Of a DNA stretch of 64,000 nt, positions 1 through 20,369 are shown in pieces. The stretch covers positions 1,126,748 to 1,190,747 of the forward strand of contig OY843611.1 of the NCBI GenBank assembly GCA_963692995.1, written 5' to 3'. A program made the translations under genes and the position numbers. How positions within the stretch are numbered: position 1 is the stretch's first letter; each line of letters starts with the position of its first letter. The notes beneath the pieces were generated by a model. That model ran no database searches. It saw only the letters and a list, made by a program, of their open reading frames with translations, and was not told where the DNA came from. The DNA comes from Dehalococcoidia bacterium. Its GTDB lineage: Bacteria; Chloroflexota; Dehalococcoidia; Lucifugimonadales; UBA3495.

Positions 1-14
1 GGCGGGCCGCCGCC

Positions 15-3522: not shown

Positions 3523-3629
3523 TTTGGGCCTCTGCTTCGTGCTGTGGCGGGTGGGAGGACTGGTGGTGTTCTCAGTTCCTTTGGATTGATGGGGGGCGGT
3601 TGCTCGGCTCCGGGGTTATGGCCGGCGGG

Positions 3630-4381: not shown

Positions 4382-4472
4382 CCCAGGTTTGGATTCCGCC
4401 AGGTCCGGCGGCCGGGGAGGTCGCTCCGGTATGGCGTACTGGGCATCCGATTGCGCGGTTTGGGTGGATCGG

Positions 4473-4673: not shown

Positions 4674-4901
4674 AATATTCTCCGTAATAGCCAGATTGGG
4701 GCTTACCGCCGTCGTCGCCGGCTGGTACGGCCCGGCGCATCCGTAGGTTGTTCTCATTGCAAGCTGATGGGCGCGTAGCGATCTCGCTTTCCCTTGTTGC
4801 GCGGCGGACAGAGCAACGTCAGGTTGTCGTAAGCGTCGGTGTTCTTTTTCCTGCGCGTAAGGGGGGCAGATTGGCTACCGCCGGACTGTCCCCGGCTCTG
4901 C

Positions 4902-5084
4902 TCACGCCAGGGGGTGGCATTGCAGGTATAGGAGTTTCTGGCCGGACCAGCCGCACCGGGCGCAGTTGGCCGTGGTGAAGGTGTGTCCATCCGGCGGTTG
5001 CGCGTCTTTGCGGCGTTGAATGACGATTTCGCCCTTCATTCTGATGGCGCCCTTACAGCGTGGGCAGCCGATAGTGATTCGCAT
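4902..5084 (-). CDS. Small zinc-ribbon protein (60 aa)
   Basis: CPRC...CARC pairs. ATG 5084 preceded by GAGAAGGAA. Confidence 0.55.
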   Translation of the reverse strand: MRITIGCPRCKGAIRMKGEIVIQRRKDAQPPDGHTFTTANCARCGWSGQKLLYLQCHPLA

Positions 5085-5141
5085 TTCCTTCTCTCTTACG
5101 GCTGGGGGCAGTCTGGCTAGGCTTACTCTTCCCATTCTCCG

Positions 5142-5411
5142 TTAGCGATGGCCTGGCATCGGTACTCGTGGTCTTTCATAAACGCGGCTACGTCCCGTCT
5201 GTTCCATCGCTCCTTGGACCACCATTGTCCACAGATGAGACAGGTCACTCTCCATACGGTGATTTGCTGGGACGAATGCCTGTCCGTGCTCGGTGATAAT
5301 GTCCTGTTCTTGCCACGTCATGCGTCTGCTCTTTTCCCGGTGCGTTTGCACTGCGTTCAGCCGTTCTTGCAGGGTGTAGATTACGTGGTCGGCGGGGGCG
5401 CTTTGGAGCAA
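5142..5411 (-). CDS. Hypothetical small protein (start uncertain: TTG 5411 or ATG 5321)
   Basis: ORF track. Normal composition. Confidence 0.45.
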   Translation of the reverse strand: MLQSAPADHVIYTLQERLNAVQTHREKSRRMTWQEQDIITEHGQAFVPANHRMESDLSHLWTMVVQGAMEQTGRSRVYERPRVPMPGHR

Positions 5412-5465
5412 GCCGGGGCATTATTCATCCCGTGCTGGCGGGCGGGAGGGTTCCGGCGTTGGCGT

Positions 5466-5735
5466 TCACAGCCATCTTTTCAGGTAGCCGCCGTGGGGCT
5501 GGCGGTAAGCGCCGTGCCGGTCGCATTGGGCGGTGATCTTGACTGGGCTGCCGGCTTTTTCAGCAGGGAAGCCGGGGCAAGGGAGCATGGTGATGGGGAT
5601 GCGGATGGCGCAGTTCTGGCAGATTGGCCGGTTGCGGCAGCCTTTGGGGTCATGGAACCAGAGGTTCGTATAGTGATTGGCCTGGGTGATGGGGTGTTTG
5701 GCGTCGGGGGTTGAGAACCCGCAATTGACTGGCAT
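5466..5735 (-). CDS. Cys-rich small protein
   Basis: 89-aa ORF with ATG start and several Cys (CRNRPICQNC...C...C). Confidence 0.55.
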   Translation of the reverse strand: MPVNCGFSTPDAKHPITQANHYTNLWFHDPKGCRNRPICQNCAIRIPITMLPCPGFPAEKAGSPVKITAQCDRHGAYRQPHGGYLKRWL

Positions 5736-5825
5736 GGTGGCCTCGGCGGTATGGTGGGGAAGTTGGCGTGATAAAGGGCGCCGGACGGGAAGGTCGGGCG
5801 CCCTGGTTTTGGCGGGTTGGCGGGT

Positions 5826-6650
5826 TCAGAAGATGGGGTTGGGGCTGTTGCAGGTGGCGATGAGGAAGCGGGAGAGGTCGTGCAGGTGGGGGGAATTATT
5901 GGCTTGTTGGCGGATCATTTGAGTGAGGTATTTGGTGGCGACGGTACGCGCGGCGGGGTTGGCGATGGAGTTGATCCAGCGGTTTTGGGCGCAGGCGAGG
6001 GCGGCGTCGGCGAGGAGTTGGCGTTCTTGCTCGTAGGCGGTGAAGGTCAGGAGTTCGGCTTCGGTGGATTGGGATTGGGGGCAGTTGGGGTTGTTGGATT
6101 GGGGTTTTTTGATTTTGACCTGGTATTGGTAGTTGCCGGGAGGTGGCCGGTCTCGGTAGTAGGTTTTGGGGGTTTCGGCGATTTGGGCATAGGGTTGGTC
6201 GGAATGGGAGCGTCGGGAGAGGGTGTAGGTGGCAGGTTTGGGGAGGTCAGCGCTGTGTTGAGGCTGGTAGTCGGGAGCGGGGTAGTAGTGGTTGTTGAAG
6301 TAGGGGTAGGGGAGAGTTCGCCAGGAGAGGTTGATGGATTGGGTGATGGGGTTGGATTGATGGGCAAGGATGGCGATGTGGTTATTGCAGGATAGGTCTT
6401 GGACTTGGGAGGCGGTGGCATAGGTATCGTGATGGGAGCTGGGGTGTGGGGCGCCGGGGGTGCTGGTTTGGTATTGAGCGCCGCCGCCGGATGGGGCGCC
6501 GCCGCCGTCGTCTTGGGCGTGGGCGGGGGCTGGGTTAGCGGTGGTGATGATGATGAGGGCGGTGAGCGCGGCGAGGGTAGCGATAGCGGCGATATTGCGG
6601 ATTCGGGCGGGGATGCGTTGCTGGGGGACGGGGGCGGTGGGATAGGGCAT
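5826..6650 (-). CDS. Secreted or membrane-anchored protein of unknown function
   Basis: 274-aa ORF. AAAGGAG RBS. N-terminal hydrophobic segment IAAIATLAALTALIIITTA followed by AHA. Confidence 0.7.
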   Translation of the reverse strand: MPYPTAPVPQQRIPARIRNIAAIATLAALTALIIITTANPAPAHAQDDGGGAPSGGGAQYQTSTPGAPHPSSHHDTYATASQVQDLSCNNHIAILAHQSNPITQSINLSWRTLPYPYFNNHYYPAPDYQPQHSADLPKPATYTLSRRSHSDQPYAQIAETPKTYYRDRPPPGNYQYQVKIKKPQSNNPNCPQSQSTEAELLTFTAYEQERQLLADAALACAQNRWINSIANPAARTVATKYLTQMIRQQANNSPHLHDLSRFLIATCNSPNPIF

Positions 6651-7043
6651 AGATTGGCTCCTTTTGTTGCGGGGTTGTTTTAGCCCCGGTGATTTGGCGG
6701 TTGAGATAACGTAAGGGTTGGCGTGGGAAGGGCGTTTTTAGGGGCGTATGGGCGGGTGAGCGGCGTTTTGATGCGGTTGGCGCGGATTGGGTGGTCTTTG
6801 GGGGATTGTTGGGCGTTTGGGGGCGTGTTTTGGTTTCGCGCCGGCATCCCGGCGAATGCCGGGAGCCGACGGGATTGGGGCGTCGGGGTTTGGAATGCCC
6901 CCGCGGGCCGGGTAGGCTGGCGGGGGCGGGAGGCGCGCTGGGGTTGGGGAAGGGGGGAACCCCAGGGCGCTTGAGTTCAGGGCAGCAGGGGTTGCCGTTG
7001 CCGGTTTGGTTTAGATAGCGCGGGGTGCGGTGAAGGGGTGGGT

Positions 7044-7475
7044 TCAGCGGCGGTAACGGGCGGGTTGGCGTTGTTGCCGGAGTTGGCGTTGTTGCTGGAC
7101 CTGGGCGACGGTTTTGTAGTAGCCGTCGTCGTCGAACCAGAGGGTTTCGATAAAGCAGTAGGCGCGGGAGGTTGACATGGCCTGGGCGCAGGCGATGCAG
7201 TTGAGGCTGGAGATTTCGGCGTAGCGGCTGAGGATGGCGCGGGGCTGTTCGAGTTGGGGTTGGGCGACGTCGATGGCGTGGTCGTCGAGGCGGTGTTCGC
7301 AGAAGGTGCAGGGGATTTGGTCGGCGATTTGGCGGAGGGTGTCGTAGTTGGAGCGGCGGGCCTGGGCGGTTTGTTGATGTGAGCCGTGCATGGCGACCCA
7401 GGCGCGGCTGAGTTTGGCGATTTCTTCGCGGTTGGTGATATGGCCTTGGGGGCCGGTTTTGAGTTCGTGTTGCAT
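7044..7475 (-). CDS. Hypothetical protein with CxxC pairs
   Basis: 143-aa ORF containing CTFCEH and CIACAQ. Confidence 0.6.
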   Translation of the reverse strand: MQHELKTGPQGHITNREEIAKLSRAWVAMHGSHQQTAQARRSNYDTLRQIADQIPCTFCEHRLDDHAIDVAQPQLEQPRAILSRYAEISSLNCIACAQAMSTSRAYCFIETLWFDDDGYYKTVAQVQQQRQLRQQRQPARYRR

Positions 7476-7502
7476 AGTGTTCGGGTCGCTCCGGTGGGGG
7501 GT

Positions 7503-10500
7503 TCAGAAAAGGGCGAGTTGGACGGGTTCGGGGAATCTTTCGAGCGTGGGCGCGGGTAGGGGCGCGGGCCGGGGCCGTGGCGCCGGCGTCGGCGTCGGCG
7601 TCGGAATAGGTTGGGGCTGGAAGGCTTGCTTGATGGGATCGGACACCAGCGGTTCGTCGGGGTCGTCGGGTGGTTCGTTGCGATTGAGGAGTTCCCTGAG
7701 TTCGGCTTCCAGCAGGGTTTCGGTAGGCGACTGGGCCAGCTGGCCGCGGCGTTCTTGTTCCAGTTCGCGGTAGAGTTCGTTTTCCACGATGTCGCTGAAC
7801 TTGTCGGCGGCGGGGTTCATCATGGAGAGGCCGTTGCGGGCGAGTTCGCCGTAGATGGCGCGGCTGGCGTCGCTTTTCTGGGCGACTTTGCGCAGGGCCT
7901 GTTCCTGCATGGTGCCGGCGTAGGCCAGGTAGTGGATGCGGATGGGCTGGGTCTGGGAGATGCGGTTGGAGCGGGCGGAAGCCTGGTCGGTGGTGTACAT
8001 GCTGTATTCGATTTCTTGCCAGATGATGGTGGGGTAGTCGAGGAGGTCGATGCCGGTTTCGACGGCTTTGGGGTTGACGATGATGCCGTCGTGGTGGCGG
8101 GCCTGGTCCTGGAACCATTGCATGCGTTTTTCGGGTTTGACGCGGGCGGCGTCCATGTAGGCGGTGGTGATGTGGTGTTGCTGGAGGATGGCTTGGGTGC
8201 GTTGGACGGTGGAGCGGGTATTGGTGTGGGTGCAGTAGATGATGAACTTGCGGTTTTGGTCTTTTTCTTCCTGGCAGATGCGGATGAGTTCGCGTTCTTT
8301 GGGGTAGGTGTGATTGGCGGGGAGCGGGGGCAGATTGATGATGGTTTCGCCGGTGGAGTTGGAGGTGGGAGCGGTGCCTTGCCAGCAGTTTTCGGGGTAG
8401 GTAAGGAGTTCCTGGAGCATGGTGGCGAGGGTGGGGGCGTTGCCGTGGTTGAGTTCTTGTTTGACGGTATCGCGGAGGGCTTGTTCGAGGGCTTGGTAGG
8501 CGGAGCGTTGGGAGTAGTTGGGGGCTGGGGCGGCGGCGGCTTCGGCGTGGGCTTGGGCGTGGGCTTCAGCGGCGGCGTCGGCGGCTTCGGCGATTGCTTG
8601 GGCGGCAGCGGCGTCGGTGACCGCTTGGGCGGCAGCGGCGTCGGTGACCGCAGTAGCGACGGCGGCCGCGTCGGCGTCGCTGGCCGCGGTGGCTTCGGCG
8701 GCGTCCTGGGCGTCGGCGGCGCGGTTTTGGGCGATTGCAGCGGCGGCTTGAGCGTCGGCGGCAGTTTCGGCCACGGCTTCCGGGGCGGCCAACGCCGTGC
8801 CGGGCGTGTCGTCCAGCGGAACCAGGGTGGGGATGATCTCCGGCGGCGGCAGTTGGCGGCGCGGATCGTCCGGGGGCAGCGCCTGGATCAGTTCGGGCAG
8901 GGTGGTGAAAACGGAGCAGTAGAGGATGTGGTTGAGCAGGCCGGGGTGAAAGCCGGGGATTTCTTCCTTGCGGCTCTGCTGCTGGCGGGCGGCGCTGACG
9001 GCGCCGGTGCGGCCGCCGTCGGTTTCGGGCCGGGAGCGCCAGACGGTGCGGTAGCGTCCGTACTGGTTGATGAACTGGCTGCGCTGGTCCCAGGGGAAGT
9101 TCCGTTGGAAGCCGGGGAGCAGGCGTTGCAGCAGGTAGAAGACGCTGCTGGCGCAGCCGCCGAGGAAGGTGCCGGTCAGTCCGATGGCGCGCTGGCTGCG
9201 CTGGGCCAGGCGGCCGGCGACTTCGCCCCGTGCGCTGGCGTTGGACTTGTACTGGTGGGCTTCGTCCAGGATCAGCAGGTCGGCCCAGCGGGGATGCTTT
9301 TGGGCGATGTAGTCTCCGATGGGGCAGCGCCAGCGGGTTCCGGGCGGGCGGGTGGGGGCTTTGAGGTGAAGGCGGCAGCCGGGGCAGCGGGCGTCGCGGC
9401 GGTTTTTGGCGTTTTCCCAACGGGCGTCGTCGGTGAGGACGCGCCAGCAGCGGGGGCAGGTCTCGCCGCGGAAGTTGCGGGCGACGGCCAGTTGGAGGGA
9501 GCCGTCGGGCCGTTCGTGGCGGTAGAGGCGGTGGGGGCCGGCGGCGCTGACGTGGCGGGTGACGCTGGCTACGGCCCAGCCGAGGCTGGCGGTGGTTTGG
9601 GGCAGCAGCAGCCAGAGGGGGGCGTCGGGAGCGGCGGGCAAGGTCAGGGCGGATTCCAGGTCGCCGTGGGCGGAGCGCAGGCTGGGATCGGGCGCGGGAC
9701 GGTTGGAGGGCTGGCGGATGCTTTCGATAACGCGGACTTTGGCTTGGGGGTTGCAGTCGGTGATTTCGCTGATCCAGCGGGGGATGATGTGCCGGGGGAG
9801 GATGACGATGACGCGGGCGCAGTCGGCGCCGGCGGCGGCGGCGACGGCCATCCAGGTCTTGCCGGAGCCGGGCTGGCTGATGATGAAGCCGCGGCGGTTT
9901 TTGCGGAGGTGAGCGGCCAGGGCGACGGCGTTGGCGCCTTGCTTGCCGATGGGCGGCTTTTTGAGCCGGGCGATGCGTTCCCGGATGGGGCGATAGCGGG
10001 GTTCCGTGGGGATAACGGTAGGCGGGAAGAGGTCGGTCATTCGGGCTTTCAGCGGCCGTCGCCAGGCGTGGAGGAAGTCGCGCAGGGCCTCCGGGTCTCC
10101 GTCGTCCACGGTGGTGATTTGGCCGTTGGCGAGGTTGAGGTAGCGGATGCTGTTGGTGAAGTTTTCGGTTTCGGTGGCTTTGCGGTGGGGGATTTCGGTA
10201 ATTTCGGCGACTTTGCGGATTTGGCCTTTGAGCAGGATGGGCGGGAGTTCGCCCTGGGGATCGGTGATGGGGTGGTTGTCCAGCTGGCCGCTGGCGAGGA
10301 GTTGCAGGGTGTGGCCGGAGTTGAGGGGCTGGAGGGTTGGCGCCGGCGGGGAGTGGCCCTGGGGCCGGAGTTGGGCGCGGGTATCGCCGCTGGCCCAGCA
10401 GCCTTCGGCGGCGGCGGCGCGGCTGAGGGTTGCCGGGTCGTATTCGCGGCGGCGGGCGATTGGGCGGGGCTGGCCGGGAACGCTGCGGAAGGCGGCGTTC

Positions 10501-11270
10501 AGCTGGGTGTGCAGGGGATAGCGGAGCAAATCGACGGGCTGGCCGAGGAAGGGGAAGTCTTCCAGGGGGCCTTCGGCGAACTTTCGCAGGGTGCGGGCGG
10601 TGTAGAAATCCCGCTGTTCGGGGTGGTTGAGGGCGGTTTTGCGCTGGCCCCAGAGGATGATCTGCCGGTATTGGTCGTATTCGGGGTCGGGAAAGCGGGC
10701 AACGCCGACGTTGTGGAAGTTGTTGGCGAGGGTAGTGGCGTCGCGGGCCAGCTGCTCGATGGGTATGACGTAGAGCAGCAGTCCGTCGGGGCGGAGCGCG
10801 GGCAGGCAGGCGCGGAGGAAGCGGCTTTCCAGGCGGTGGTCGCCGGTGTCGTGGTTGGCGGGGGCGTTGTCGGCGTCCCAGTCGTAGGGCGGGTTGAGCC
10901 AGAGGGCGTCGGCGCTTTCGGGCTGGAGGGCGACGTTTTCCAGGTCGGCCTGGAGGACGTGGTGGAGGTTATGGCGGGCGGCGGCGGCGCGCTCGCTATT
11001 GAGTTCCACGCCGTGGGTTACGACGCGGTGGGGGTAATTGGGGCAGGACCGGCTGATTTGGCGGGTGATGGCGTTGGCGAAGGCGGCGACGGCGTGTCCT
11101 TCGCCGCAGCAGGGGTCCAGGAGGTGGAATTCGGGAACGGGAGGCGGCTTTTGCGGGTCGAGGCTGCGGTGGTTCCCGGCGCAGCGGGCGAAGAGGGGCG
11201 GTTCCAGGAGTTTGATTACGGGCAGGGGGGTCGGGTAGTAACCGGATTTGGTCCAGCCTTGCGGTCGCAT
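7503..11270 (-). CDS. Fusion protein: N6-adenine-type DNA methyltransferase plus SF2 (SNF2/DEAH-like) helicase
   Basis: 1255 aa. MTase motifs DPCCGEG (motif I) and LNPPYDW (motif IV). Helicase motifs GSGKT, LILDEAHQYK, ETGIDL and QASARSNRISQ. CPRC...CPGC zinc ribbon. Ala/Asp-rich insert with a 27-bp tandem duplication at 8598-8651. Confidence 0.9.
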   Translation of the reverse strand: MRPQGWTKSGYYPTPLPVIKLLEPPLFARCAGNHRSLDPQKPPPVPEFHLLDPCCGEGHAVAAFANAITRQISRSCPNYPHRVVTHGVELNSERAAAARHNLHHVLQADLENVALQPESADALWLNPPYDWDADNAPANHDTGDHRLESRFLRACLPALRPDGLLLYVIPIEQLARDATTLANNFHNVGVARFPDPEYDQYRQIILWGQRKTALNHPEQRDFYTARTLRKFAEGPLEDFPFLGQPVDLLRYPLHTQLNAAFRSVPGQPRPIARRREYDPATLSRAAAAEGCWASGDTRAQLRPQGHSPPAPTLQPLNSGHTLQLLASGQLDNHPITDPQGELPPILLKGQIRKVAEITEIPHRKATETENFTNSIRYLNLANGQITTVDDGDPEALRDFLHAWRRPLKARMTDLFPPTVIPTEPRYRPIRERIARLKKPPIGKQGANAVALAAHLRKNRRGFIISQPGSGKTWMAVAAAAGADCARVIVILPRHIIPRWISEITDCNPQAKVRVIESIRQPSNRPAPDPSLRSAHGDLESALTLPAAPDAPLWLLLPQTTASLGWAVASVTRHVSAAGPHRLYRHERPDGSLQLAVARNFRGETCPRCWRVLTDDARWENAKNRRDARCPGCRLHLKAPTRPPGTRWRCPIGDYIAQKHPRWADLLILDEAHQYKSNASARGEVAGRLAQRSQRAIGLTGTFLGGCASSVFYLLQRLLPGFQRNFPWDQRSQFINQYGRYRTVWRSRPETDGGRTGAVSAARQQQSRKEEIPGFHPGLLNHILYCSVFTTLPELIQALPPDDPRRQLPPPEIIPTLVPLDDTPGTALAAPEAVAETAADAQAAAAIAQNRAADAQDAAEATAASDADAAAVATAVTDAAAAQAVTDAAAAQAIAEAADAAAEAHAQAHAEAAAAPAPNYSQRSAYQALEQALRDTVKQELNHGNAPTLATMLQELLTYPENCWQGTAPTSNSTGETIINLPPLPANHTYPKERELIRICQEEKDQNRKFIIYCTHTNTRSTVQRTQAILQQHHITTAYMDAARVKPEKRMQWFQDQARHHDGIIVNPKAVETGIDLLDYPTIIWQEIEYSMYTTDQASARSNRISQTQPIRIHYLAYAGTMQEQALRKVAQKSDASRAIYGELARNGLSMMNPAADKFSDIVENELYRELEQERRGQLAQSPTETLLEAELRELLNRNEPPDDPDEPLVSDPIKQAFQPQPIPTPTPTPAPRPRPAPLPAPTLERFPEPVQLALF

Positions 11271-11311
11271 AAGGGCGGTTCTCCTGGGGATGGGGTTTTA
11301 TTCGGCGGTGG

Positions 11312-11908
11312 CTGCGTAAATCAGGGCATTAGGTTCCAAATTGGGCCGGTTGGCGTGGGAGCGGTAGGTCCGGGCGGAGCAGCGATTGTTCGGGGGCGTC
11401 TGCGTAAATGTGGGCATCAGGTTCCGGGGGCGTTATGCTGAAAGGTGGGCGTCAGGTTCCAAATTGGAAAGATTGCACCCGGTGTGAAGTTTCCAATTTG
11501 GGGAGCGGTTGTTCGGGAGCGTCTGCGTAAATCAGGGCATTAGGTTCCGAGGGCGTTGTGCTGAAGCGTGGGCATTAGGTTCCAAAGGGCGGTACTTTAT
11601 TCGGGGATGTCTGCGTAAATGTGGGCATTAGGTTCCAGGGGGATGCCTGCTGAAGTGTGGGCATTAGGTTCCAAATTGGAAAGATTGCACCGGGGGCGAA
11701 GTTTCCGGTTTGGGGAGTAGTTGTTCGGGGGCGCGTGCGTAAATCAGGGCATCAGGTTCCGGGGGCGTTGTGCTGAAGTGTGGGCATCAGGTTCCAAAGG
11801 GCGGTATTTTGTTCGGGGATGTCTGCGTAAATAAGGGCATTAGGTTCCGGGGGGATGCCTGCGTAAGTGTGGGCATTAGGTTCCGGTTGAGTGTGGGCAT
11901 TAGTTTCC
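11312..11908. repeat. Iteron-like array: 12 copies of a ~24-26-bp motif ending GGGCAT(T/C)AGGTTCC, organised in a ~211-bp higher-order unit
   Basis: Copies start at 11312, 11400, 11436, 11523, 11559, 11611, 11647, 11735, 11771, 11823, 11858 and 11887. Two subtypes (GCGTAAAT.. and GCTGAAG..) alternate as dyads. Embedded inverted repeat CCAAATTGGAAA(11459-11470)/TTTCCAATTTGG(11490-11501). Confidence 0.9.
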
Positions 11909-12453
11909 AGTTGGAGATTGGCGGGTTTGAGGAGTTGGGGTTTGGCGCGGCGACGGGGCGGGAATTCGGGGATTGGCGGCGTTGGGTCCGGGGCCGGAGC
12001 GGGGTTGCGGCGCGCGGGCGGGCGGCTCTGGGCTTGCGGTGTCGCCGGGTTGGGCCGGGCCGGGCTGTTGCATCCGCTGGGCTGGGGCAGTCTCCGGCCT
12101 GGTTACGCGGGGCTACACTGCTGGGCCAGCCGCCGCGCCGCCCGCCTTTTCGGGGGGCGGCGGGCCAGGTCGGGCTGACCGGCGTAACGTAACCCCCGTA
12201 CCCCTCGTAACTCTCGTTGCCTCCTATATTGCGTAGGCCGATGTCGGGGTTTTCTCTCAGTTGGGTGGACGGGGGCGTTAGGGGCGGGGGCGATGTGGCG
12301 TGAGCCGCTTCGCCGGGAGGGGTTTCCCATCCGGCTCTACGGCGGTTCTTGGTGGCTTTGGCGCCCATGCTTGCGTAATAGGGGTGCGCGTTCTTTGATG
12401 GCAAAGAATGCGCGGGCATGGTCATCCCTGATTTCGTTGTTCAGATCTCGCCC

Positions 12454-12858
12454 CTAGAACGGTTTGTCGCCGTGTCGGTATGGTCTTTGTTCGTTGTATT
12501 CCATCTTGTCGTACAACGCTTGGCCGACGGGCAATTCCTCGTGGTGGGCAAAGTCCAGCAAGCGGATGATAGCGTCGGCGCATTCCAACGCCATTTCTCT
12601 GCAAGTTTCCTCACTCCATAGGTCATTTTTCTTTTCGGCATTTCGCGCAACTTCCATCATTTCGCACAACTCGCTAACTACCATCCCGACAACGTGCGGG
12701 ACGGTCAGTTCCGTATCGCGCCAACCTTTTTCGCAAGCAATGCGATTGCTGTGGTCAGCAATCTCGTCCAATGCGATAATCCATTCCGTTTTCGGACATT
12801 GTTTGTTCGTCGGTTCTTTCATAATCCTTGTCCATTCTCGCTCTTCGCACTTTCGCAT
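12454..12858 (-). CDS. MazG-like nucleoside triphosphate pyrophosphohydrolase (start 12858 or 12822)
   Basis: EIADHSNR...SELCEMMEV...ECADAIIRLLDFA pattern typical of small all-alpha MazG/NTP-PPase proteins. The gene sits in a visibly lower-GC patch. Confidence 0.7.
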   Translation of the reverse strand: MRKCEEREWTRIMKEPTNKQCPKTEWIIALDEIADHSNRIACEKGWRDTELTVPHVVGMVVSELCEMMEVARNAEKKNDLWSEETCREMALECADAIIRLLDFAHHEELPVGQALYDKMEYNEQRPYRHGDKPF

Positions 12859-12947: not shown

Positions 12948-13214
12948 TCACTGCAATATGCAGGTGTCCATCGCGTCATCGTATGCGTCAGCAGCGGCTT
13001 GAGCGTCAGCAGCGGCTTGAGCGTCAGCAGCGTATGACTCCGCGCAGTAGGCGGCGCACTCGGCCGCATATGCGGCTTCGTCGTCGGCGGCGTACAGTTT
13101 GGATAGCCGGTCGGCGTGAGCGCGGGCAGCGACGGCGACGGCGCGGGCGTTGTCCGCCATTGCTGCCCAGTCGGGCGCCGGGTCCGGAGCCGGGTTGCGG
13201 TCGATGGCAGGCAT
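12948..13214 (-). CDS. Hypothetical Ala/Asp-rich small protein
   Basis: 88-aa ORF. AAGGAG RBS before ATG 13214. Confidence 0.45.
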   Translation of the reverse strand: MPAIDRNPAPDPAPDWAAMADNARAVAVAARAHADRLSKLYAADDEAAYAAECAAYCAESYAADAQAAADAQAAADAYDDAMDTCILQ

Positions 13215-13349: not shown

Positions 13350-13748
13350 TCATCCGATAGTCCGGCTGGCTACCAGGTCTTCCATCCGGCTGCGCCGGAC
13401 GTCACGGCTTCCGCCATCATCGCGCACTGCCAGCCCGGCTTTGGCAAGTTCCTCGCCGAGGGATTCCGTGTATCCCAGGATCTCAACCAGCGGACGGCCG
13501 TATGCGTCAGAGTCGCCGGCCGATCTGGCCCATAGCCCCCACTGGCTCCGGCACCAGTCCTTGACAAACTCGGTGGCTTCGTCTGCCATCGCCTTTTCTG
13601 CATCGCTGACGCCGCGGCGTTCCGGGGTGTCATACCCGTTTAGCCGCACGACGGTTCTTATGCTGACGTTGTAGCCGAGTTCAATTTGGCACTCATAGGT
13701 GTCGCCGCTCGCCACGCGGATGATTCTTGCCGGATTGGTTACGTCCAT
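13350..13748 (-). CDS. Staphylococcal-nuclease (SNase/thermonuclease)-like nuclease
   Basis: VRLNGYDTPE and DAYGRPLVEI resemble the SNase R-L-x-G-I-D-x-P-E and D-x-Y-G-R motifs. Confidence 0.7.
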   Translation of the reverse strand: MDVTNPARIIRVASGDTYECQIELGYNVSIRTVVRLNGYDTPERRGVSDAEKAMADEATEFVKDWCRSQWGLWARSAGDSDAYGRPLVEILGYTESLGEELAKAGLAVRDDGGSRDVRRSRMEDLVASRTIG

Positions 13749-13821
13749 TGCTGTTTCTCCTGTGATACGGGGGTTCGGCTGCGCCGGTGGGCCCTCCTCA
13801 GCCCTCTGGCGCCGGCCGTCC

Positions 13822-15423
13822 TCAGCCCTTCCGGCTGAGCGGCGTTCCGCTGCCCAGCCGGTCGCCGGTCTCCGCCGCTACCAGCCGGTTCGCCGCCCGC
13901 GCCAGCAACTTCTGCCGGGCGCTGAGAAACTCCGGGTAACGCGGGGTCTGCCACAACCTCGGGTCGGCCGGTATCAGGTGGCTCTCCAGCAGCCCCGGAT
14001 CGGACTGGGCCAGTTGGTTCAGGCACTCGGCGGGGGACTTGCCGGTCAATGACCGGGCCGTGCTGACGGTCAGGATCGTCGCGTTGCCGATGGCGTGGGG
14101 ATCGGCGTCGGCGCTTTTGCCGAAGGTTTGCCGCAATTCGTCGGCGGAAAAGATGCAATGCGTGGTCAGTTGCTCCGGCGCGTACCGTCGCAGAGGCAGC
14201 CGGGTCAGCCAGTCCCGGGTCGCCGGCCCTTTCAGCAGCGCGTGCCAGACGATGTAGTAGCTGCTGCGGTGATACAGTCCGAAGCGGAACTGTTCCGGCT
14301 CGGCGAAGGTCTTGCCCAGGCGGGCTTCCCGGCGGGCTTGCAGGGCCGCCCAGGGCGGGTCGCTGGCGTCGAGGGCGCGCAGATCAGCGTCCAACGCGCT
14401 GGCGTATCCGCTGCGGTAAGGGCCGCCGGCCACGGCGCGGAGCAGGTAGATCATTCCTTGTCGCCGGTCCGTGGGATCGCGGAAGGCGCCGTTCTGTTGG
14501 CTCAGGCGCCGGGCCAGCACGCTGAGGGGCGCGGTGGTCAGCGTCCGGGGATCGCTGAGGCCCAGCTCGGCGGTGATGGCGTCGGCAATGGCGGCGAAAG
14601 TCTGCTCGGCCTGGGCGAAGGCCAGGGCCAGTTGCCCCGGCGACGGGTCGGCCAGCGCCAGGCCGTGGGGCCGCAGCCGGCCGGTGTGAATGGCCGTCAT
14701 GGTGCGGATGATGGTGTCCTGGGTAATCACCCGTTCCAGTATGCCCTTGCGGTGCTGACGGATCAGCCGGCGGAACTCGGTCAGGGCGTCGGGCCAGCGG
14801 GCGGCGATCCAGGCCATGGCGATGTCGTTGCGGGTCAGGGGACGGCCGCTGGTGTTGATGCGCCGGAAGATTTCCAGCACGGCGGCGCTGTCCAGTTCCG
14901 GGTCGATTTCCTGCACGGGCAAGGCGCGGTCCCGGATGCTGTGGAGGCGGCTGAGCCGCAGCAGGCACTCGTCCTGTTGGGCGGCGAAGTCCCGGCTTGG
15001 GGCCGAGCGCTGGCGCCAGGCGGCCAGGGCGGCCCGGTCGTCGGTGAGGACGGCGGTTACGGGGAGCCAGCCGGGGCGGCGTTCCAGTTCGCCCGGTTTG
15101 GGGTAGCCGAAAATGTCGCGGAGGGGATCGAAGCACAGGTCGGTGGGCGGCGGGGCGGTTGCGTCGTCGTAGAAGGGCGGCGCGTGGCCCAGAGCGGCGG
15201 CGTAGATGCTGGCGAGGCGCTGCTGTCCGTCCACGATGAGGTATTGGGGGCCGCCCAGGGCGGGACGCTGCCGCCACAGGGTGATTATTCCGATGGGATA
15301 GCGCCGGTAGAGGGACTCGATCAGTTCCAGGGCCCGCTGGCGGGACCAGGCGTAGCCGCGCTGGAAGGGGGGCAAGCGGATGGAGCCGTCGTGCATTCCG
15401 GCGATGAGTTGGCTGATTTCCAT
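13822..15423 (-). CDS. GmrSD-family DUF262/DUF1524 nuclease (type IV restriction-like)
   Basis: N-terminus PPFQRGYAW...YPIGIITLW...LIVDGQQRL (DUF262). C-terminus THCIFS...IGNATILT...SLTGKSP (His-Me finger/DUF1524-like). GGAGG RBS. Confidence 0.85.
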   Translation of the reverse strand: MEISQLIAGMHDGSIRLPPFQRGYAWSRQRALELIESLYRRYPIGIITLWRQRPALGGPQYLIVDGQQRLASIYAAALGHAPPFYDDATAPPPTDLCFDPLRDIFGYPKPGELERRPGWLPVTAVLTDDRAALAAWRQRSAPSRDFAAQQDECLLRLSRLHSIRDRALPVQEIDPELDSAAVLEIFRRINTSGRPLTRNDIAMAWIAARWPDALTEFRRLIRQHRKGILERVITQDTIIRTMTAIHTGRLRPHGLALADPSPGQLALAFAQAEQTFAAIADAITAELGLSDPRTLTTAPLSVLARRLSQQNGAFRDPTDRRQGMIYLLRAVAGGPYRSGYASALDADLRALDASDPPWAALQARREARLGKTFAEPEQFRFGLYHRSSYYIVWHALLKGPATRDWLTRLPLRRYAPEQLTTHCIFSADELRQTFGKSADADPHAIGNATILTVSTARSLTGKSPAECLNQLAQSDPGLLESHLIPADPRLWQTPRYPEFLSARQKLLARAANRLVAAETGDRLGSGTPLSRKG

Positions 15424-15460
15424 GTTGGGGGCCTCCGGTTTCCGGCGGGCGGGTTGACGG

Positions 15461-16147
15461 TTATTCCGGCGCGGCGGCCAGTTCGCCGGCGGCCAGTCGC
15501 TGGCACAGCGCTTCTTGCAGTTCCGTCCAGTTCACGTGGGCTTGCCAGCCGTAGAGTTTGCCCGGCGCGGCCCGCCACGCGGAGAGGGGCGTCAGCCATT
15601 CCTGTTCGACGCAGTAGTCCCAGATGGCTTGATCCCACTGGGGCAGGGCGATCAAGCCCGTCTCCCGGCGCAGCCGTTCGCCCAGCAAGCGCGGGCCGTG
15701 TTCCGGCGCTTCGCTGAACAGCCAGCCGGAGTAGTTTTCGTCCGCCGCGGCGTCGGCGGGCGGGGTGAAGTTGGCGCGGGACGGCGCTTGCCCTGGGGGC
15801 ATTAGCAGCAGATGGTGTTGCCCCGGCAGCGCGGTCAAGGGCCGCTGCCAGCGTTGGGCGCGGGTTAGCGGCTGCAAGTTCAGGAAGGTTTTCCAGGGCG
15901 CCGCGCCGCCGCCGTCGGGGTAAAGGGTTCCGGTATGGCTGGGGCCGGCGGCTCCGAAGTGGCTGCGCAGGCTTTTGATGGTGGCGGTGGGGCCGATTAC
16001 GGAGAGGAAGGCCAGGTTTGAGCCGTCCAGCGCCCAGGCGTCGCAGAGGGCGCTGACGCCGGCCACGGCGAAGTTCCACGCGACGGCTGGCTCCCCCTGG
16101 GCAGTCTCGGCAGTTGCGGTGGCAGTTGCGTTCTCGTTCTCGTTCAC
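15461..16147 (-). CDS. Hypothetical protein (228 aa), operon partner
   Basis: GTG start overlaps the upstream stop as GTGA. No motif recognised. Confidence 0.6.
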   Translation of the reverse strand: MNENENATATATAETAQGEPAVAWNFAVAGVSALCDAWALDGSNLAFLSVIGPTATIKSLRSHFGAAGPSHTGTLYPDGGGAAPWKTFLNLQPLTRAQRWQRPLTALPGQHHLLLMPPGQAPSRANFTPPADAAADENYSGWLFSEAPEHGPRLLGERLRRETGLIALPQWDQAIWDYCVEQEWLTPLSAWRAAPGKLYGWQAHVNWTELQEALCQRLAAGELAAAPE

Positions 16148-16320
16148 CGGGCGGGCCTCCGCAGGGTCGCGGCCTTTTCCGTTGCGTCGCCGCCGAAGCG
16201 GGCCAGGCCCAGCTGGGTCAGCAGGTCCCGGGGCGCCGGGCTTTCGTTAATCAGCGGGACAATGGCGCGGCGGGGCGCCGTGGTCGCCGGGTGGTGGTGG
16301 GCGTTGCCAGGAAGTTTCAT
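16144..16320 (-). CDS. Small protein (58 aa), not in ORF track
   Basis: Hand translation gives MKLPGNAHHHPATTAPRRAIVPLINESPAPRDLLTQLGLARFGGDATEKAATLRRPAR. AAAGGAG RBS. Stop is coupled to the next start. Confidence 0.45.
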   Translation of the reverse strand: MKLPGNAHHHPATTAPRRAIVPLINESPAPRDLLTQLGLARFGGDATEKAATLRRPAR

Positions 16321-16372
16321 GTGAGTAGTCTCCTTTTCCGGCGCGGTGGCCGGGCAATCTGTCGGGTAGATG

Positions 16373-17509
16373 TCAGAAGGGCGGCGGGTCGGCTACGGCC
16401 GCGTCGTCGGCAGCGTTGGATGGGGGGATTACGGTGGCGCCGGCGTTCAGCAACGCCTGCCGCGCGTCGATGCTGGCGCAGTCCAGGTTGGACAAGTCCG
16501 CGCCTTGCAAGTTGGCGTTACGCAGGTTGGCGCCTCGCAAGTTGGCGTTACGCAGGTTGGCGCCTCGCAAGTTGGCGTCCCGCAAGTCCGCGTTATGCAA
16601 GTTGGCGCCTCGCAAGTCGGCCTGCCGCAAGTCGGCGTCGTCCAAGCGGGCGTAGCTCAGGTCGGCGTGGGCGGCGTCGGCCCGGCGCAGGTTGGCGCTC
16701 AGCAAATAAGCTCCGCGCAGGTCGGCCTTGGTCAGGTCGGCCTCAATGAGGGTAGCGTCGTTGAGCTGGGCGCCTCGGAGCAGGGCGTTGCGCAGGCTGG
16801 CGTTCTGCAAGTCGGCGTCGTTGAGGGTAGCGGCCCGCAGATTGGTCCGGGCCAGGCTGGCGTAGGTCAGGTCGGCGCGGTAGAGGATGGCCTTGCTCAG
16901 GTCGGCGCAGCTCAGGTTCGCGCTGGGGAGGTTGGCGTCGGTCAAGTTGGCGCAGTTCAGGTTGGCGTGGGGGAGTTTGGCGTCGGTGAAGTCGGCGCCG
17001 GTAAGGTCCGCGTCGGTCAAGTTGGCGGCGGCGAGGCGGGCGCTAGACATTTTGGCGTGAGCGAGGTCGGCGCCGGCCAGGTTGGCGTCGGTCAGGTCGG
17101 CGTCGGGCAAGTCGGCGCCGGCTAGTTTGGCGTGGGGGAGGTAGGCGTGGGAAAGGTCGGCGCCGGCGCCGTCGGCGCTGGCTAAGTCGGCGTTGGTGAG
17201 ATTGGCGCTGGTCAAGTCGGCGCCGGGCAATAGGGCGTCGGACAAGTCGGCGCCGGCCAGGTTGGTTCCGGTCAAGTTGGCGTAGGGCAGGTCGGCGCCG
17301 GCTAGTTTGGCGGCGGTCAAGTCGGCGCAGGTCAAGTCGGCGCCGGAGAGTTTGCCGCTGGTCAAGTCGGCATGGGACAAGTCGGCGCGGGTCAAGTCGG
17401 CGCCGGAGAGGTTGGCGTCGGTTAGGTCGGCGTCGGACCAGTCGGCGCCGTAGCGGTTGAGGTTGGTTAGGTTCGCAATCGCTTGGGCTGGCTCATTGGC
17501 GTTGTTCAT
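16373..17509 (-). CDS. Pentapeptide-repeat protein (378 aa)
   Basis: Almost the whole protein is consecutive A(D/N)LxX units. ATG 17509 preceded by AAGGAG. It overlaps the upstream gene by 17 nt. Confidence 0.9.
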   Translation of the reverse strand: MNNANEPAQAIANLTNLNRYGADWSDADLTDANLSGADLTRADLSHADLTSGKLSGADLTCADLTAAKLAGADLPYANLTGTNLAGADLSDALLPGADLTSANLTNADLASADGAGADLSHAYLPHAKLAGADLPDADLTDANLAGADLAHAKMSSARLAAANLTDADLTGADFTDAKLPHANLNCANLTDANLPSANLSCADLSKAILYRADLTYASLARTNLRAATLNDADLQNASLRNALLRGAQLNDATLIEADLTKADLRGAYLLSANLRRADAAHADLSYARLDDADLRQADLRGANLHNADLRDANLRGANLRNANLRGANLRNANLQGADLSNLDCASIDARQALLNAGATVIPPSNAADDAAVADPPPF

Positions 17510-19268
17510 CTGGCTCCTTGGCTCCGCAAGATGGGTTGGTCTCCGGAACTTTTCCCGCTGGCTGGTCGGCGGCATTGGACGGGTCGGCGTGGGTTTGGGC
17601 CGGGGTAGCGGCGGCGGCTTCGGCTTCGGCGGCGGCTTCCGCGCCTTCCGCCTGCGTTTTTGCCAGCCAGTGCCGGATTTCCGCCGCTCGGCCCGTGGTC
17701 TCCAGCCACTCCCGCAACCGCTCTCCCAGGGCCTGGGCCTCCTCCGACGATAATTTGAGGCAATAGCCCACCACCGCCGCCAGCGCCGCCCCGGCCATGG
17801 CGTCGCCGTCCTGGGGCAGCCAGATCATCCGATGCCAGGAGTTGACCGCCGCCAGCGGCTCCGTCAACCGCGGGGAACGGGGGAAGAAGTTTCTTGACAA
17901 TTCCCGGAATTCTAGGGCAAAGGCGGCCCGATCACCTTCCAGCAGCCGCGTCGCCAGCGCGCGCATCTGGTCGGAATACTGTTCTGAGGTCATTTCTTCC
18001 GGCGGGTCGTGGTGGGGCCAGTAAGCGGCGAAGAGCGTGTCGCGCAGCGCGGCTACGTCTCCGTCGTAGCCCTCGGCCAGCCAGACGCACTCGTCATAGA
18101 GTTCGCCCAGGAAGGCGGCGTTGGCGGGAGTGACGCATTCGCCGGTGGTTCCGTCGGGCGCCGCAACCTTGACCCGGATAGTGATGGACTGGGCGCGCCG
18201 GTGGATTTCTTCCGGCCAAAGTTCCCGCGTGGGCAGGCCATGGTTGCGTGTCGGGTCGTATTCCAGCTTTTGGCTGTCCGGGCCGACGATGGCGATGCCG
18301 GCTACGGTCAGGCTGGGCGGCGGCTCGGTTGGCGCCGGATTATCCGGCCGGTTCCGCCACTTTGGACGTTGTTCCACCGGAGCGTAGCCCGCGGCGGGAT
18401 TGGCGTAGAGCGCCATGGCGAGGGTGTAGTCCAAGCAGTATTCTTGGGAGTTGGGGTTGGAATTGTCGATGTGGGCGGGCTGGGCTGGCGCGTTGACGTA
18501 GATGTCCGGGGCTTCCCGGTCGGCCCGCCAGCCGGTCCAGTAGGGACGCTGGCGGATGGCGGCGTAAGTCTCCGCCGATGGTTGGGTTTCGGCTTCGGCG
18601 TTGTCGTCGCCGGTCGCCGACCGGATTTGAGTCCACACCCAGAGTTCCTGCGCTTCCTGCTGTTCTTGCAGCTCCGCCCAGCCGTCGGCTTCCAGGATGC
18701 ACCACGCCCGGCCCGAATGGCTGACGAAACTGCACGGCAAGTCGGCGCGGTCGTTCCAGTCAATGTTGTATTCAATGCGATAGCGGCGGGCGCCGCTCCA
18801 GTGGGGATAGGCCGGCTCCGGTTCGGGCAAGTGGATTTCCCGCGCCATCTCGACGCCGGGGCCGGAACCGGCGCTTTGGAACAGTTCGTAGATCACGCCC
18901 TGGCAGCGCAGCAACTGGCCGGTCGTCGCGCTGTTCGGCAGCCGGCGCTGCGGAGCGGTTCGGGGCTGTCCGGCGATGCCGCCGATGACGCCGACTTCCA
19001 ACGCCCGCGGGCGGTCGGGAAAGGCCAGGGTTTTTATTTGGTCGCCGTTGATTCGGACCGGCGCCGGGTAGTATTCCAGCATCTGGGCCAGCCGGTCGGC
19101 GCCGACGGGGGCCGTGGTAGTTTGGGTGTCGCTGCTGATCACAAACTCGTCGCCGGCCGGGGCGATGATCAGGCGCAGGGGCTGTCTGGGCCGGTCGGGC
19201 TGCTGCGGCCAACGCAAGAGCCGGTGCAAGCCGTTCAGGGATGCGATGTTGGCGGTGGGACTGGTCAT
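17493..19268 (-). CDS. Large hypothetical protein (591 aa), first gene of the operon
   Basis: ATG 19268 preceded by AAGGAGG. In-frame upstream ATGs at 19304 and 19367 lie in repeated leader copies. No motif recognised. Confidence 0.7.
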   Translation of the reverse strand: MTSPTANIASLNGLHRLLRWPQQPDRPRQPLRLIIAPAGDEFVISSDTQTTTAPVGADRLAQMLEYYPAPVRINGDQIKTLAFPDRPRALEVGVIGGIAGQPRTAPQRRLPNSATTGQLLRCQGVIYELFQSAGSGPGVEMAREIHLPEPEPAYPHWSGARRYRIEYNIDWNDRADLPCSFVSHSGRAWCILEADGWAELQEQQEAQELWVWTQIRSATGDDNAEAETQPSAETYAAIRQRPYWTGWRADREAPDIYVNAPAQPAHIDNSNPNSQEYCLDYTLAMALYANPAAGYAPVEQRPKWRNRPDNPAPTEPPPSLTVAGIAIVGPDSQKLEYDPTRNHGLPTRELWPEEIHRRAQSITIRVKVAAPDGTTGECVTPANAAFLGELYDECVWLAEGYDGDVAALRDTLFAAYWPHHDPPEEMTSEQYSDQMRALATRLLEGDRAAFALEFRELSRNFFPRSPRLTEPLAAVNSWHRMIWLPQDGDAMAGAALAAVVGYCLKLSSEEAQALGERLREWLETTGRAAEIRHWLAKTQAEGAEAAAEAEAAAATPAQTHADPSNAADQPAGKVPETNPSCGAKEPDEQRQ

Positions 19269-19463
19269 GGCTGCCTCCTTGGGGCGTTGCGGTGGGGCCG
19301 GCATTGCCTCCTCTGGGGCGTTGCGGCGGGGCGAACAGATACCGCACCGGGTGGTGAACGCCGGCATTGCCGCCCTGGGCGTTGCGGCGCGGCGGGGTTA
19401 AAAGCAAATCCGGCCCGGTCGCAACCGAGCCGGAAGTCCGGCGGAAGACGCTGATCCCGGCCG

Positions 19464-20237
19464 CTATTCCGGCTGTAGATCCCGCTGGTCGAACTGGAAC
19501 CACCGGACCACGCCCTGGGCAATCAGCGCGTCCACCGCGTGGTCGTTGCGCAGGCTGATGATGAGGGGCGTCGCGTTCAGCCCGGTGAACTTGGTCAGAA
19601 ACTCCGCGTTGCGCTGCGCCCGTTGGACGTCCCGGAGGTCGGCGGTGTACGATGCTTCGCCGGCCAGGTAGAACTCGGCGCCGGCCGGGTCGCGGACTTG
19701 GATCACCAGGTCGGCGTTGTAGAAGCTGCGGCGCTGGCCGAAGGGAATGTCCGCCGCGTCGTCCTGCCGGCGGACCAGCTCCCGCAGGTCGGCGCCGTCC
19801 AGCTGGGCGATGATGCGGCAGCCCAGGCTGGCGGCGATGTCGTCAGCCCGGTCCCGGGCCAGACGCCCCGCCACGTGGCCCTTGAGATCGCCCAGGTCGT
19901 CGGTGATGCGCTGCAAGCGGTGGGTTACGGCGGCGTTGAACTCCCGCTGTTCTGCGTTGAACTGCTTTTGCTCTGCGTTGAACTGCTTTTGATCCGCGTT
20001 GAACTGCTTTTGATCCGCGTTGAACTCCTGCTGCTCCGCTATGAAATTCGTGACGTTGACGTTGAACTGCTGCTGCTCCGCTATGAACTTCGTGACGCTG
20101 GCGGCAAACTGCGCAAACCGCTCCGGCAACTGCCGCAGCTCGTCGGACAGCACCAGGCTGCGAACCTGTTCCAGAAAGGCGGGGTCTTCTTGCAGCGTCC
20201 GCATCAGGCGGAGCTTTTCCGATTCATTTAGTGTCAT
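19464..20237 (-). CDS. Coiled-coil tandem-repeat protein with PD-(D/E)xK-like C-terminal domain (paralogue of 1001-1852)
   Basis: VLSDELRQLP N-terminal motif. FN(A/V)(D/E)QKQ heptads. C-terminus DLVIQV...YLAGEASYT. Confidence 0.8.
   Translation of the reverse strand: MTLNESEKLRLMRTLQEDPAFLEQVRSLVLSDELRQLPERFAQFAASVTKFIAEQQQFNVNVTNFIAEQQEFNADQKQFNADQKQFNAEQKQFNAEQREFNAAVTHRLQRITDDLGDLKGHVAGRLARDRADDIAASLGCRIIAQLDGADLRELVRRQDDAADIPFGQRRSFYNADLVIQVRDPAGAEFYLAGEASYTADLRDVQRAQRNAEFLTKFTGLNATPLIISLRNDHAVDALIAQGVVRWFQFDQRDLQPE
19934..20100. repeat. In-frame 21-bp tandem repeat (~8 units) inside CDS 19464-20237
   Basis: GTTGAACTGCTTTTG(A/C)TC(C/T)GC units, several of them identical. Confidence 0.9.
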
Positions 20238-20369
20238 GGCATTAGTTCCATCTCGATAACGCTTGACTTCCGATTGTAGCACCGTTGTGGCACCGTTGGA
20301 GGTCGTCGGGGGCCAATCAAAGGCCGTCGGAGGCCGTTGTAGCACCGTCGGAGGCCGTCGGAGGCCGGA

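Follow-up and report, generated by a model that had tools for sequence, protein, structure and literature searches.

Described counterparts of the genes considered here are found in several groups of proteins. One is the BrxU/GmrSD family, in which BrxU is a single-protein enzyme that forms an interlocked dimer whose dissociation is required (PMC8565348). In BrxU, the substitutions D474A and H475A lead to the loss of both DNA cleavage and defence (PMC8565348), as do mutations of the equivalent residues E471 and H472 of HEC-06, and the BrxU variant N519A retains DNA cleavage in vitro. Another group consists of pentapeptide-repeat proteins. Two DNA mimics of this group, McbG and QnrB, showed no inhibition of bacteriophage exclusion (BREX) when tested (PMC7261183), and genetic evidence indicates that another pentapeptide-repeat protein, gp60 of phage 24, counteracts the Sucellos defence system (bioRxiv 10.1101/2024.07.02.601686). 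Six consecutive genes, hereafter A to F, that encode among others a BrxU/GmrSD-family protein (E) and a pentapeptide-repeat protein (B) are found in an integrated, phage-like element of a Dehalococcoidia bacterium (assembly GCA_963692995.1, contig OY843611.1, positions 1,126,748 to 1,190,747). This whole stretch of 64,000 nt is the window to which the coordinates below refer.

A preliminary description of this locus had proposed that A to E constitute a single new system for defence or counter-defence. On balance, A to F are probably not a dedicated multi-gene system but accessory cargo, pooled and exchangeable, that an integrated temperate phage-like element carries in its early unit. These genes would then be neighbours because module boundaries are places where mobile elements collect and reshuffle genes of this sort, and each product would act singly. 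Present evidence thus gives no new defence system. The locus also carries a caution, since genes that are closely packed and translationally coupled in a phage early unit could not for that reason be taken as one system, and a handful of sister elements sufficed to reveal that the parts are gained and lost independently of each other.

Organization of the six genes

All six genes lie on the minus strand, and the coordinates, starts, ribosome-binding sites and junctions previously given for them were all reproduced. Gene A (17493–19268, 591 aa) overlaps gene B (16373–17509, 378 aa) by 17 nt. A gap of 52 nt separates B from gene C (16144–16320, 58 aa), which overlaps gene D (15461–16147, 228 aa, GTG start) through a GTGA sequence; D is followed after 37 nt by gene E (13822–15423, 533 aa) and E, after 73 nt, by gene F (13350–13748, 132 aa). 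A GGAGG-like ribosome-binding site is found 8–9 nt 5' of each of the six starts, and the in-frame G+C content at third codon positions reaches 0.80–0.88 in these genes versus about 0.67 overall. An alternative, longer open reading frame (ORF) of 624 aa could be read for A from position 19367; the remote homologues of A begin at the methionine of the 591-aa product.

The ratios of nonsynonymous to synonymous substitution (dN/dS) calculated against orthologues from closely related elements are about 0.5 for A and B, about 0.3 (0.2–0.4) for D and about 0.4 for E and F. As these values fall in a range of 0.2–0.55, A, B, D, E and F can be considered as real genes. The ratio obtained for C, 0.5–1.2, is uninformative for so short a gene.

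Decay and exchange in sister elements

The gene order is shared only by closely related elements, in which most of the products display 85–97% amino acid identity and which are referred to below as the lineage. The window carries A-B-C-D-E-F-MazG, with a B of 378 aa, and the copy L088 carries A-B-C-D-E-F', with a B of 329 aa. In L001 and L003, an 88-aa Ala-rich ORF separates A from a B of 322 aa, which is followed by C, D and the first 410 residues of E fused in frame to the C-terminal part of a methylase-helicase; L002 displays the same arrangement, including the Ala-rich insertion (11694–11960 in L001), plus a frameshift. Finally, L004 reads A'-[decayed B']-hairpin-A-B-C-D-E-F-MazG-F-F, with a B of 62 aa and a D that is a pseudogene.

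Two of these arrangements bear directly on the dependence of the genes on each other. In L001–L003, a deletion has removed the residues of E beyond 410, F, MazG and the methylase domain, and A to D have been kept. The resulting chimera, a 720-aa protein combining DUF262 and Helicase_C that aligns with the methylase-helicase from residue 918 of the latter, is found on several contigs (L001, 13922–16084; L003, 12358–14520; L002, 14080–16503) and represents a relic or, alternatively, a new combination of domains. In L004, E is intact (533 aa, 93% identity, unchanged motif, dN/dS as elsewhere). In the same copy, a loss of about 970 nt of repeats has reduced B to 62 aa, and its second copy has decayed; D has lost about 340 nt and carries a frameshift; both copies of A persist without any intact B. 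The maintenance of an intact E without B or D, and of B-C-D without the tail of E, therefore argues against E depending on B or D as immunity or regulatory partners. In particular, the immunity pairing of E with B that had been suggested earlier is contradicted by L004, where E is intact beside a B cut to 62 aa.

Furthermore, the genes do not share one history. Between the window and L088, synonymous divergence (dS) is 0.04–0.11 for C, D and E, 0.17 for A and 0.69–0.78 for F and B, the value for B being possibly inflated by misalignment of its repeats. Such uneven values are a signature of module exchange. Likewise, F is only 64% identical to its L004 and L088 copies versus 92–93% for E, which indicates allele replacement at F. 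In L004 (8106–16072 of a 389-kb circular contig), the terminator-A-B segment is duplicated in tandem, A' being 57–66% identical to A; three copies encoding the staphylococcal nuclease-like (SNase) protein F are present, two of which form a single 279-aa fusion protein, and a DUF499 ATPase gene is found downstream, at the position held in the window by a repeat array and the methylase-helicase gene. According to cluster tables only, the genome that carries the window harbours other, diverged copies of A, D and E, and two of those of D are truncated. A megablast search with the 6-kb block detected no match in plasmids and phages.

Several points weigh against the interpretation of A to F as exchangeable cargo. 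The six genes are tightly packed in one direction with a conserved C/D coupling, the A-B-C-D-E order is kept in at least five copies of the lineage, and the terminator-A-B segment was duplicated in L004 as a single piece, so that A-B and C-D may be functional pairs. In addition, the copies that were compared come from few metagenomes and probably from one host lineage, and the argument of independent decay is of limited power because the decayed copies may be dying prophages. The replacement of a catalytic His by Cys in E, discussed below, is deduced from a motif alignment and from the secondary structure of a model, not from coordinates or biochemistry.

The packing, the translational coupling and the shared order, together with the conserved terminator that marks the upstream edge of the unit and the juxtaposition of a basic E (net charge +13) with an acidic B (net charge −22), would also suit a single new defence system made up of A to E, with or without F, in which E would be the effector, B a DNA-mimic inhibitor or regulator, and A, C and D sensors or adaptors. 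Such a system is, however, decidedly unlikely. Indeed, the destruction of B and D has left E intact with an unchanged dN/dS, B, C and D persist where the tail of E has been deleted, alleles of B and F have been exchanged relative to C-D-E, E is devoid of the catalytic His, and no PADLOC model matches A to D. The loci found outside of the lineage, where these genes do not co-occur, also argue against it.

Relatives outside of the lineage

Relatives of E that share 25–34% identity with it are associated with wholly different partners or stand alone. The closest ones outside of the lineage (P0008 and P0009, 34% identity) are encoded by the last gene of a conserved four-gene cluster, which indicates that DUF262 proteins of the clade of E can work with partners and, to this extent, favours the hypothesis of a single system. 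A more distant relative (about 28% identity), fused to AlbA_2, belongs to an Hma system that includes nucleotidyltransferase (NTase)/HEPN proteins and an ABC-type ATPase. In two annotated plasmid loci, relatives are encoded beside DISARM genes (Nostoc) and beside genes of giant DEAD-box helicases (Paracoccus). No homologue of A, B, C or D was found near E relatives in those loci.

The four-gene cluster (L005, 3404–9593; L006, 1–2107) encodes PDC-M33A (659 aa), PDC-M33B (289 aa), a DUF6339 protein of 540 aa in which PDC-M33C is joined to an SspD-like phosphoadenosine phosphosulfate (PAPS)-reductase domain, and a DUF262 protein that resembles BrxU and has the canonical motif HHIFP; in L005, the cluster adjoins Pycsar and PemK. 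This cluster looks like an undescribed Ssp-like arrangement for modification and restriction. The possibility that A or D could be divergent forms of PDC-M33A or PDC-M33B was rejected (hhalign probability of 0.4%, BLASTP E-value of 0.37), and this lack of relationship with the partners of E relatives is a further point against a single system.

A pentapeptide ORF was found in the flanks of only one of 83 DUF262 loci, on the opposite strand, and A, C and D were absent from all 83. Among 80 DUF262 loci from IMG/VR, the sole pentapeptide ORF lies 1.5 kb away on the other strand. Globally, A, C and D are syntenic in one lineage only and the remote loci that encode A relatives carry none of the other genes, so the gene order does not recur in unrelated genomes. 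The central proposal of the preliminary description, that A to E belong to one system, is thus not supported, since the neighbourhood is not conserved outside of one narrow lineage.

A divergent BrxU/GmrSD-family protein

Residues 3–206 of protein E match GmrSD_N/DUF262 (PF03235) with 93.9 bits (cut-off 33.2). Its best PADLOC model is HEC-05, which corresponds to BrxU (1e-22), and its other matches, HEC-06 and NsnA-type, are also single-gene models; PADLOC thus offers no system model for A to D and only single-gene models for E. A profile built from E and its relatives aligns over almost its full length with BrxU 7p9k (E-value of 1e-42, profile positions 5–523, BrxU positions 6–577). Furthermore, Foldseek retrieves the same BrxU structure (E-value of 1e-12) with the AlphaFold2 (AF2) model of E, whose predicted local distance difference test score (pLDDT) is 79.6. 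These matches back the DUF262 head and the GmrSD-like architecture recognized earlier. Over the full length of the protein, a helical linker connects the DUF262 NTPase head to a DUF1524-like His-Me-finger tail. Pfam DUF1524 itself gave no match in E at E-values of up to 0.01; the DUF1524-like nature of the tail is supported by the full-length BrxU profile and by Foldseek. In addition, a beta-beta-alpha element is found at residues 419–459 of the model and a plasmid relative of the tail carries a DUF1524 annotation.

The family alignment shows no variation at the NTPase motif D65-G-Q-Q-R69 or at S37 (serine of ELIES, equivalent to that of RLFDS). E has Glu at the position of the Arg of RLFDS; the BrxU variant R38A stays functional. 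The nuclease motif departs more strongly from the family, since the segment FHV-D474-H475-IYPK of BrxU aligns with the consensus ER-H-H-IFPK of the family and with TT-H422-C423-IFSA in E. E therefore displays HCIFS in place of (D/E)HIxP, Cys423 replacing the general-base His and His422 occupying the position of BrxU Asp474. The automatic HMMER alignment shifts the HHIFPK/DHIYPK segment by about 10 residues, and this correspondence was re-read by eye and against the beta-beta-alpha element of the model, in which C423 is located at the end of the strand 419–423. BrxU N509 is retained as N447, and N518 and N519 are replaced by A456 and R457. The three copies with a tail that were compared (window, L004 and L088) share HCIFS without change, His422 is invariant, and the closer cellular relatives of E have HHIFP. 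The tail evolves with an omega of about 0.4, equal to that of the head, and all three parts of E are under purifying selection.

E is thus a divergent new member of the BrxU/GmrSD family with an unusual active-site substitution. Because the general-base His is replaced by Cys and the helix Asn (BrxU N518) by Ala, canonical HNH cleavage by E is doubtful, and there is slightly better than an even chance that its nuclease centre is impaired. The earlier assignment of the tail hence holds for its DUF1524-like fold but not for its canonical catalytic His, and calling E a nuclease is uncertain since its nuclease motif is non-canonical.

Among the relatives of E, those of the AlbA_2-fused clade found within Hma systems (P0010–P0018) often have Tyr or Arg instead of the second His of HHIFP, and they lack the helix Asn. 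Erosion of the HNH centre thus extends beyond prophage copies. As several of these cellular relatives vary at the same His and are devoid of the helix Asn, the nuclease activity of E is doubtful rather than excluded. E could illustrate either the tolerance of the GmrSD nuclease centre or the carriage of inactivated defence enzymes by mobile elements. In the cargo interpretation, E would act alone, as BrxU does, its DUF262 head binding and hydrolysing NTP and its DUF1524-like tail engaging DNA.

E might also be an ordinary, active, stand-alone type IV restriction enzyme devoted to superinfection exclusion, the other genes being unrelated early genes for replication or host take-over without any role in defence or anti-defence. 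The full-length similarity to BrxU, the intact DGQQR and Ser37, the purifying selection across all three parts of the protein and the location of E relatives in defence islands are consistent with this explanation; moreover, since BrxU N519A cleaves DNA in vitro, the position of Arg457 need not be occupied by Asn. It is nevertheless unlikely, as the His replaced by Cys423 is indispensable in BrxU and HEC-06, A to D match no replication or structural family, and E is encoded inside an early lytic-type unit and not by a separately oriented moron.

An acidic pentapeptide-repeat protein

Protein B matches the Pentapeptide family (PF00805, E-value of 2e-85), with 64 consecutive A(D/N)LxX pentapeptides that extend from residue 22 to residue 341 in an unbroken register. 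It is predicted to fold as a right-handed beta-helix of about 16 coils. Its net charge is −22 and its isoelectric point (pI) 4.4, the negative charge being concentrated in the first nine coils and the C-terminal third being neutral to basic. B does not reach the NCBIfam equivalog cut-offs of Qnr (101 bits, 240 needed) or MfpA (78 bits, 360 needed), and its best PDB matches are generic cyanobacterial Rfr proteins. Its orthologues have 378, 329, 322 and 62 aa. The pentapeptide-repeat identity reported previously is therefore right but the term 'giant' was overstated for a protein of 378 aa. Although long, B is an ordinary pentapeptide protein and, by analogy, a candidate DNA mimic or anti-defence protein, which would most plausibly titrate a DNA-binding enzyme of the host.

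A rare family of mobile-element proteins

Protein A has no match in Pfam, PADLOC, PHROG, NCBIfam or the PDB sequences. A full HMMER scan of 1.84 billion representatives retrieved 58 clusters of relatives of about 470–550 aa, whose conserved motifs include LHxLLR, MLAHYPxPVxINGE and YSxAxALY..GLVPV. An AF2 model built with 22 relatives has a pLDDT of 83.6 and a predicted template modelling score (pTM) of 0.74; this model has no structural neighbour in the PDB and BFVD, which rules out a known fold as far as these two databases are concerned. A search of plasmids and phages with tblastn gave no match. Scans of GTDB genomes, IMG/VR and JGI metagenomes yielded pattern matches only and no true relative, the alignment of the broad family being too diverse for pattern building.

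The remote homologues of A (P0055–P0109) are encoded in gene-dense, unannotated regions, for which PHROG annotation of the neighbours returned nothing. One of these loci encodes an N6/N4 methyltransferase and another encodes, in addition, a Macro-domain protein, ArdC and RNase H; none carries a DUF262 or pentapeptide gene beside the A homologue. The proximity of distant relatives to genes of orphan methyltransferases and ArdC points to A as a candidate for a role in establishment or anti-defence. The family, with its confident predicted structure devoid of structural neighbours and its location beside anti-restriction genes, is a candidate for a new function of mobile elements.

The properties of E, B and A raise the question of whether the whole locus could be a counter-defence island used for entry into new hosts, with E as an impaired BrxU-like decoy, B as a DNA mimic that would block other defences aimed at DNA, and MazG, SNase and the methylase-helicase completing an anti-restriction toolkit. 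A decoy E could heterodimerise with GmrSD/BrxU-type enzymes of the host, a mechanism that the obligatory dissociation of the interlocked BrxU dimer (PMC8565348) makes conceivable, or could compete with them for DNA. The conservation of HCIFS in the three tail-bearing copies and the constraint on the tail (omega of about 0.4) would agree with a retained role of this kind, but AlbA_2-fused Hma relatives vary at the second His, so the substitution is perhaps tolerated and is no mark of a decoy, and the invariant neighbouring His422 might substitute for the missing residue. Similarly, the phage pentapeptide anti-defence protein cited above (bioRxiv 10.1101/2024.07.02.601686) offers a precedent for B, but McbG and QnrB failed to inhibit BREX (PMC7261183). 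The early-unit position beside MazG and the methylase-helicase and the proximity of A relatives to ArdC, a Macro-domain protein and orphan methyltransferases also fit; there is no evidence, however, of a cognate BrxU-like enzyme in the host. As a whole, this explanation appears quite unlikely.

It is very unlikely that an HNH-impaired E has been kept as a decoy or dominant-negative partner of host GmrSD/BrxU-type enzymes and forms, with the 16-coil rod B and possibly A, C and D, a lineage-specific counter-defence module. If this were true, the 'dead-enzyme plus DNA-mimic' strategy would be an undescribed one. In a weaker variant, A-B and C-D-E would be functional sub-modules of a new phage-borne system.

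Proteins C, D and F

Protein C is basic (pI 11.6) and 78–91% identical across four copies of the lineage. All four copies compared retain its ORF, and the overlap of 4 nt with D is also present in L001 and L088; in L004, where D is disrupted, C was called longer (93 aa). No relative of C was found outside of the lineage. Homologues of D are internal to the lineage as well, among 5.8 billion proteins, and D has no family or PDB match (Pfam, PADLOC, PHROG, NCBIfam). C and D are a translationally coupled pair through their GTGA overlap. PADLOC families gave no match for A, B, C or D.

In agreement with the SNase-like assignment made earlier, protein F matches SNase (PF00565, 30.9 bits, cut-off 21) and phrog_452 'endonuclease' (1e-21). 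The catalytic residues read from its translation (GDT, VRL, DTPE, YGRP) make it an active-looking staphylococcal nuclease-like endonuclease.

A probable terminator and its bearing on transcription

A GC-rich hairpin with an 11-bp stem and a U-tract (19399–19434, minus strand) lies directly upstream of A, after the upstream gene. With −20 kcal/mol, it is the longest-stemmed and strongest terminator-like site between 11 and 24 kb, and it occurs only once in the window. This hairpin is found upstream of every copy of A, in five intergenic regions of the lineage that include the spacer between A' and A in L004, where three one-sided substitutions have kept the pairing as G-U. It is therefore likely an intrinsic terminator and a module boundary.

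In the same L004 spacer, the hairpin and the ribosome-binding site of A are no more than about 35 nt apart. As this leaves no room for a promoter, transcription probably enters A by read-through or antitermination. Neither E nor F is followed by a comparable terminator, and the transcription unit therefore extends past A to F. These genes would most likely be expressed by read-through or antitermination upon induction of the element or its entry into a cell.

Two sets of repeats flank the hairpin. Between it and the start of A (19270–19400), three degenerate copies of CCGCAACGCCC(C)A(R)(R)GGAGGCA(ATGCCGGC) are found; each bears a GGAGG resembling a ribosome-binding site, an ATG follows two of them, and L004 has one copy only. 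On the other side, the gene upstream of A (19464–20345, 293 aa; orthologues of 271–285 aa) includes six 21-nt tandem repeats (19912–20089) that encode heptads of QKQFNAE type.

The integrated element

Positions 1 to about 36.4 kb of the window correspond to an integrated element, in which a long minus-strand unit is faced by the genes of a CI-type repressor (helix-turn-helix (HTH) domain and S24 peptidase, 34573–35298, plus strand) and a tyrosine integrase (35249–36436, plus strand) at the right end of the element. On the repressor side of A, the minus-strand genes encode an excisionase-like HTH protein, a PD-(D/E)XK nuclease and an SNF2 helicase, as well as a primase/polymerase-like protein, a UvrD-like helicase and an Hjc-like resolvase. 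On the other side, the minus strand carries the genes of a MazG-like NTP pyrophosphatase (12454–12858; phrog_3301 'pyrophosphatase', 1e-20) and of a 1255-aa fusion of a DUF6094 methyltransferase with an SNF2-type helicase (7503–11270; Pfam DUF6094, ResIII and Helicase_C), which is the methylase-helicase mentioned above and partially matches mad2 and DpdE in PADLOC. The integrase, the CI-type repressor, the MazG-like protein and the methylase-helicase bear out the view, already expressed in the preliminary description, of a mobile element rich in genes of defence or anti-defence type. Host housekeeping genes, such as those of ThiC, an Mg-chelatase-like ATPase and HemN, are found past 36.5 kb. 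Since no phage structural gene was recognised within the window, it is likely, but not proven, that the element is a prophage. A tRNA scan of the window detected no tRNA.

Just 5' of the methylase-helicase gene, the intergenic region 11304–11913 contains about ten copies of a repeat of about 34 nt (GGGGATGTCTGCGTAAATGTGGGCATTAGGTTCC), whose spacings alternate between 88, 36, 53 and 35 nt and which are nested in three units of 212 nt. This array looks like iterons or a protein-binding array, and could be an origin or a site for the ParB-like DUF262 head. Ala/Asp/Gln-rich low-complexity sequences are encoded by an 88-aa ORF located between F and MazG (12948–13214) and by a long insert of the methylase-helicase (protein residues ~800–880). 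The GC skew of the plus strand is very strong from 1 to 12000 (+0.23 to +0.45), which corresponds to C-rich coding strands of the minus-strand genes; it falls sharply to about 0 at 12 kb and is slightly negative past 20 kb.

Comparison with known systems

BrxU (PADLOC HEC-05; PDB 7P9K; PMC8565348) is the system that E resembles most by its organization, as both consist of one polypeptide in which a helical linker joins a DUF262 head to a DUF1524-type tail, and as DGQQR and the Ser of RLFDS are kept in E. Furthermore, relatives of E are embedded in or located beside Hma, DISARM and phosphorothioate-like systems. However, E is only about 17% identical to BrxU, has HCIFS instead of DHIYP and Ala456/Arg457 instead of Asn518/Asn519, and is encoded in the early unit of the element and not within a BREX locus; moreover, E is known from its sequence and a model. 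The similarity of E to SspE is confined to the DUF262 head. Relatives of E sharing 34% identity close a cluster that includes an SspD-like protein, as SspE follows sspABCD in phosphorothioate-type systems, but the window has neither SspD-like nor PDC-M33 genes.

Like Qnr, MfpA, McbG and AlbG, B has A(D/N)LxX repeats that are predicted to form a quadrilateral beta-helix, and its surface is strongly acidic, but it is about twice as long, its register is devoid of the Qnr loops and its scores do not come near the Qnr and MfpA cut-offs. Like gp60 of phage 24, it is a pentapeptide-repeat protein borne by a phage or phage-like element; the likeness to gp60 lies in the class of repeat, and the host and the defence system differ.

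No gene from A to F is homologous to ArdA, ArdC or Ocr. The window nevertheless resembles the anti-restriction and establishment regions of mobile elements that carry ArdA/ArdC, Ocr or orphan methyltransferases, in that it clusters a putative acidic DNA mimic, MazG, a nuclease and a methylase-helicase in a unit that is probably expressed early. For this methylase-helicase, the DarB-type methylase-helicases of P1 are presumably the relevant comparison.

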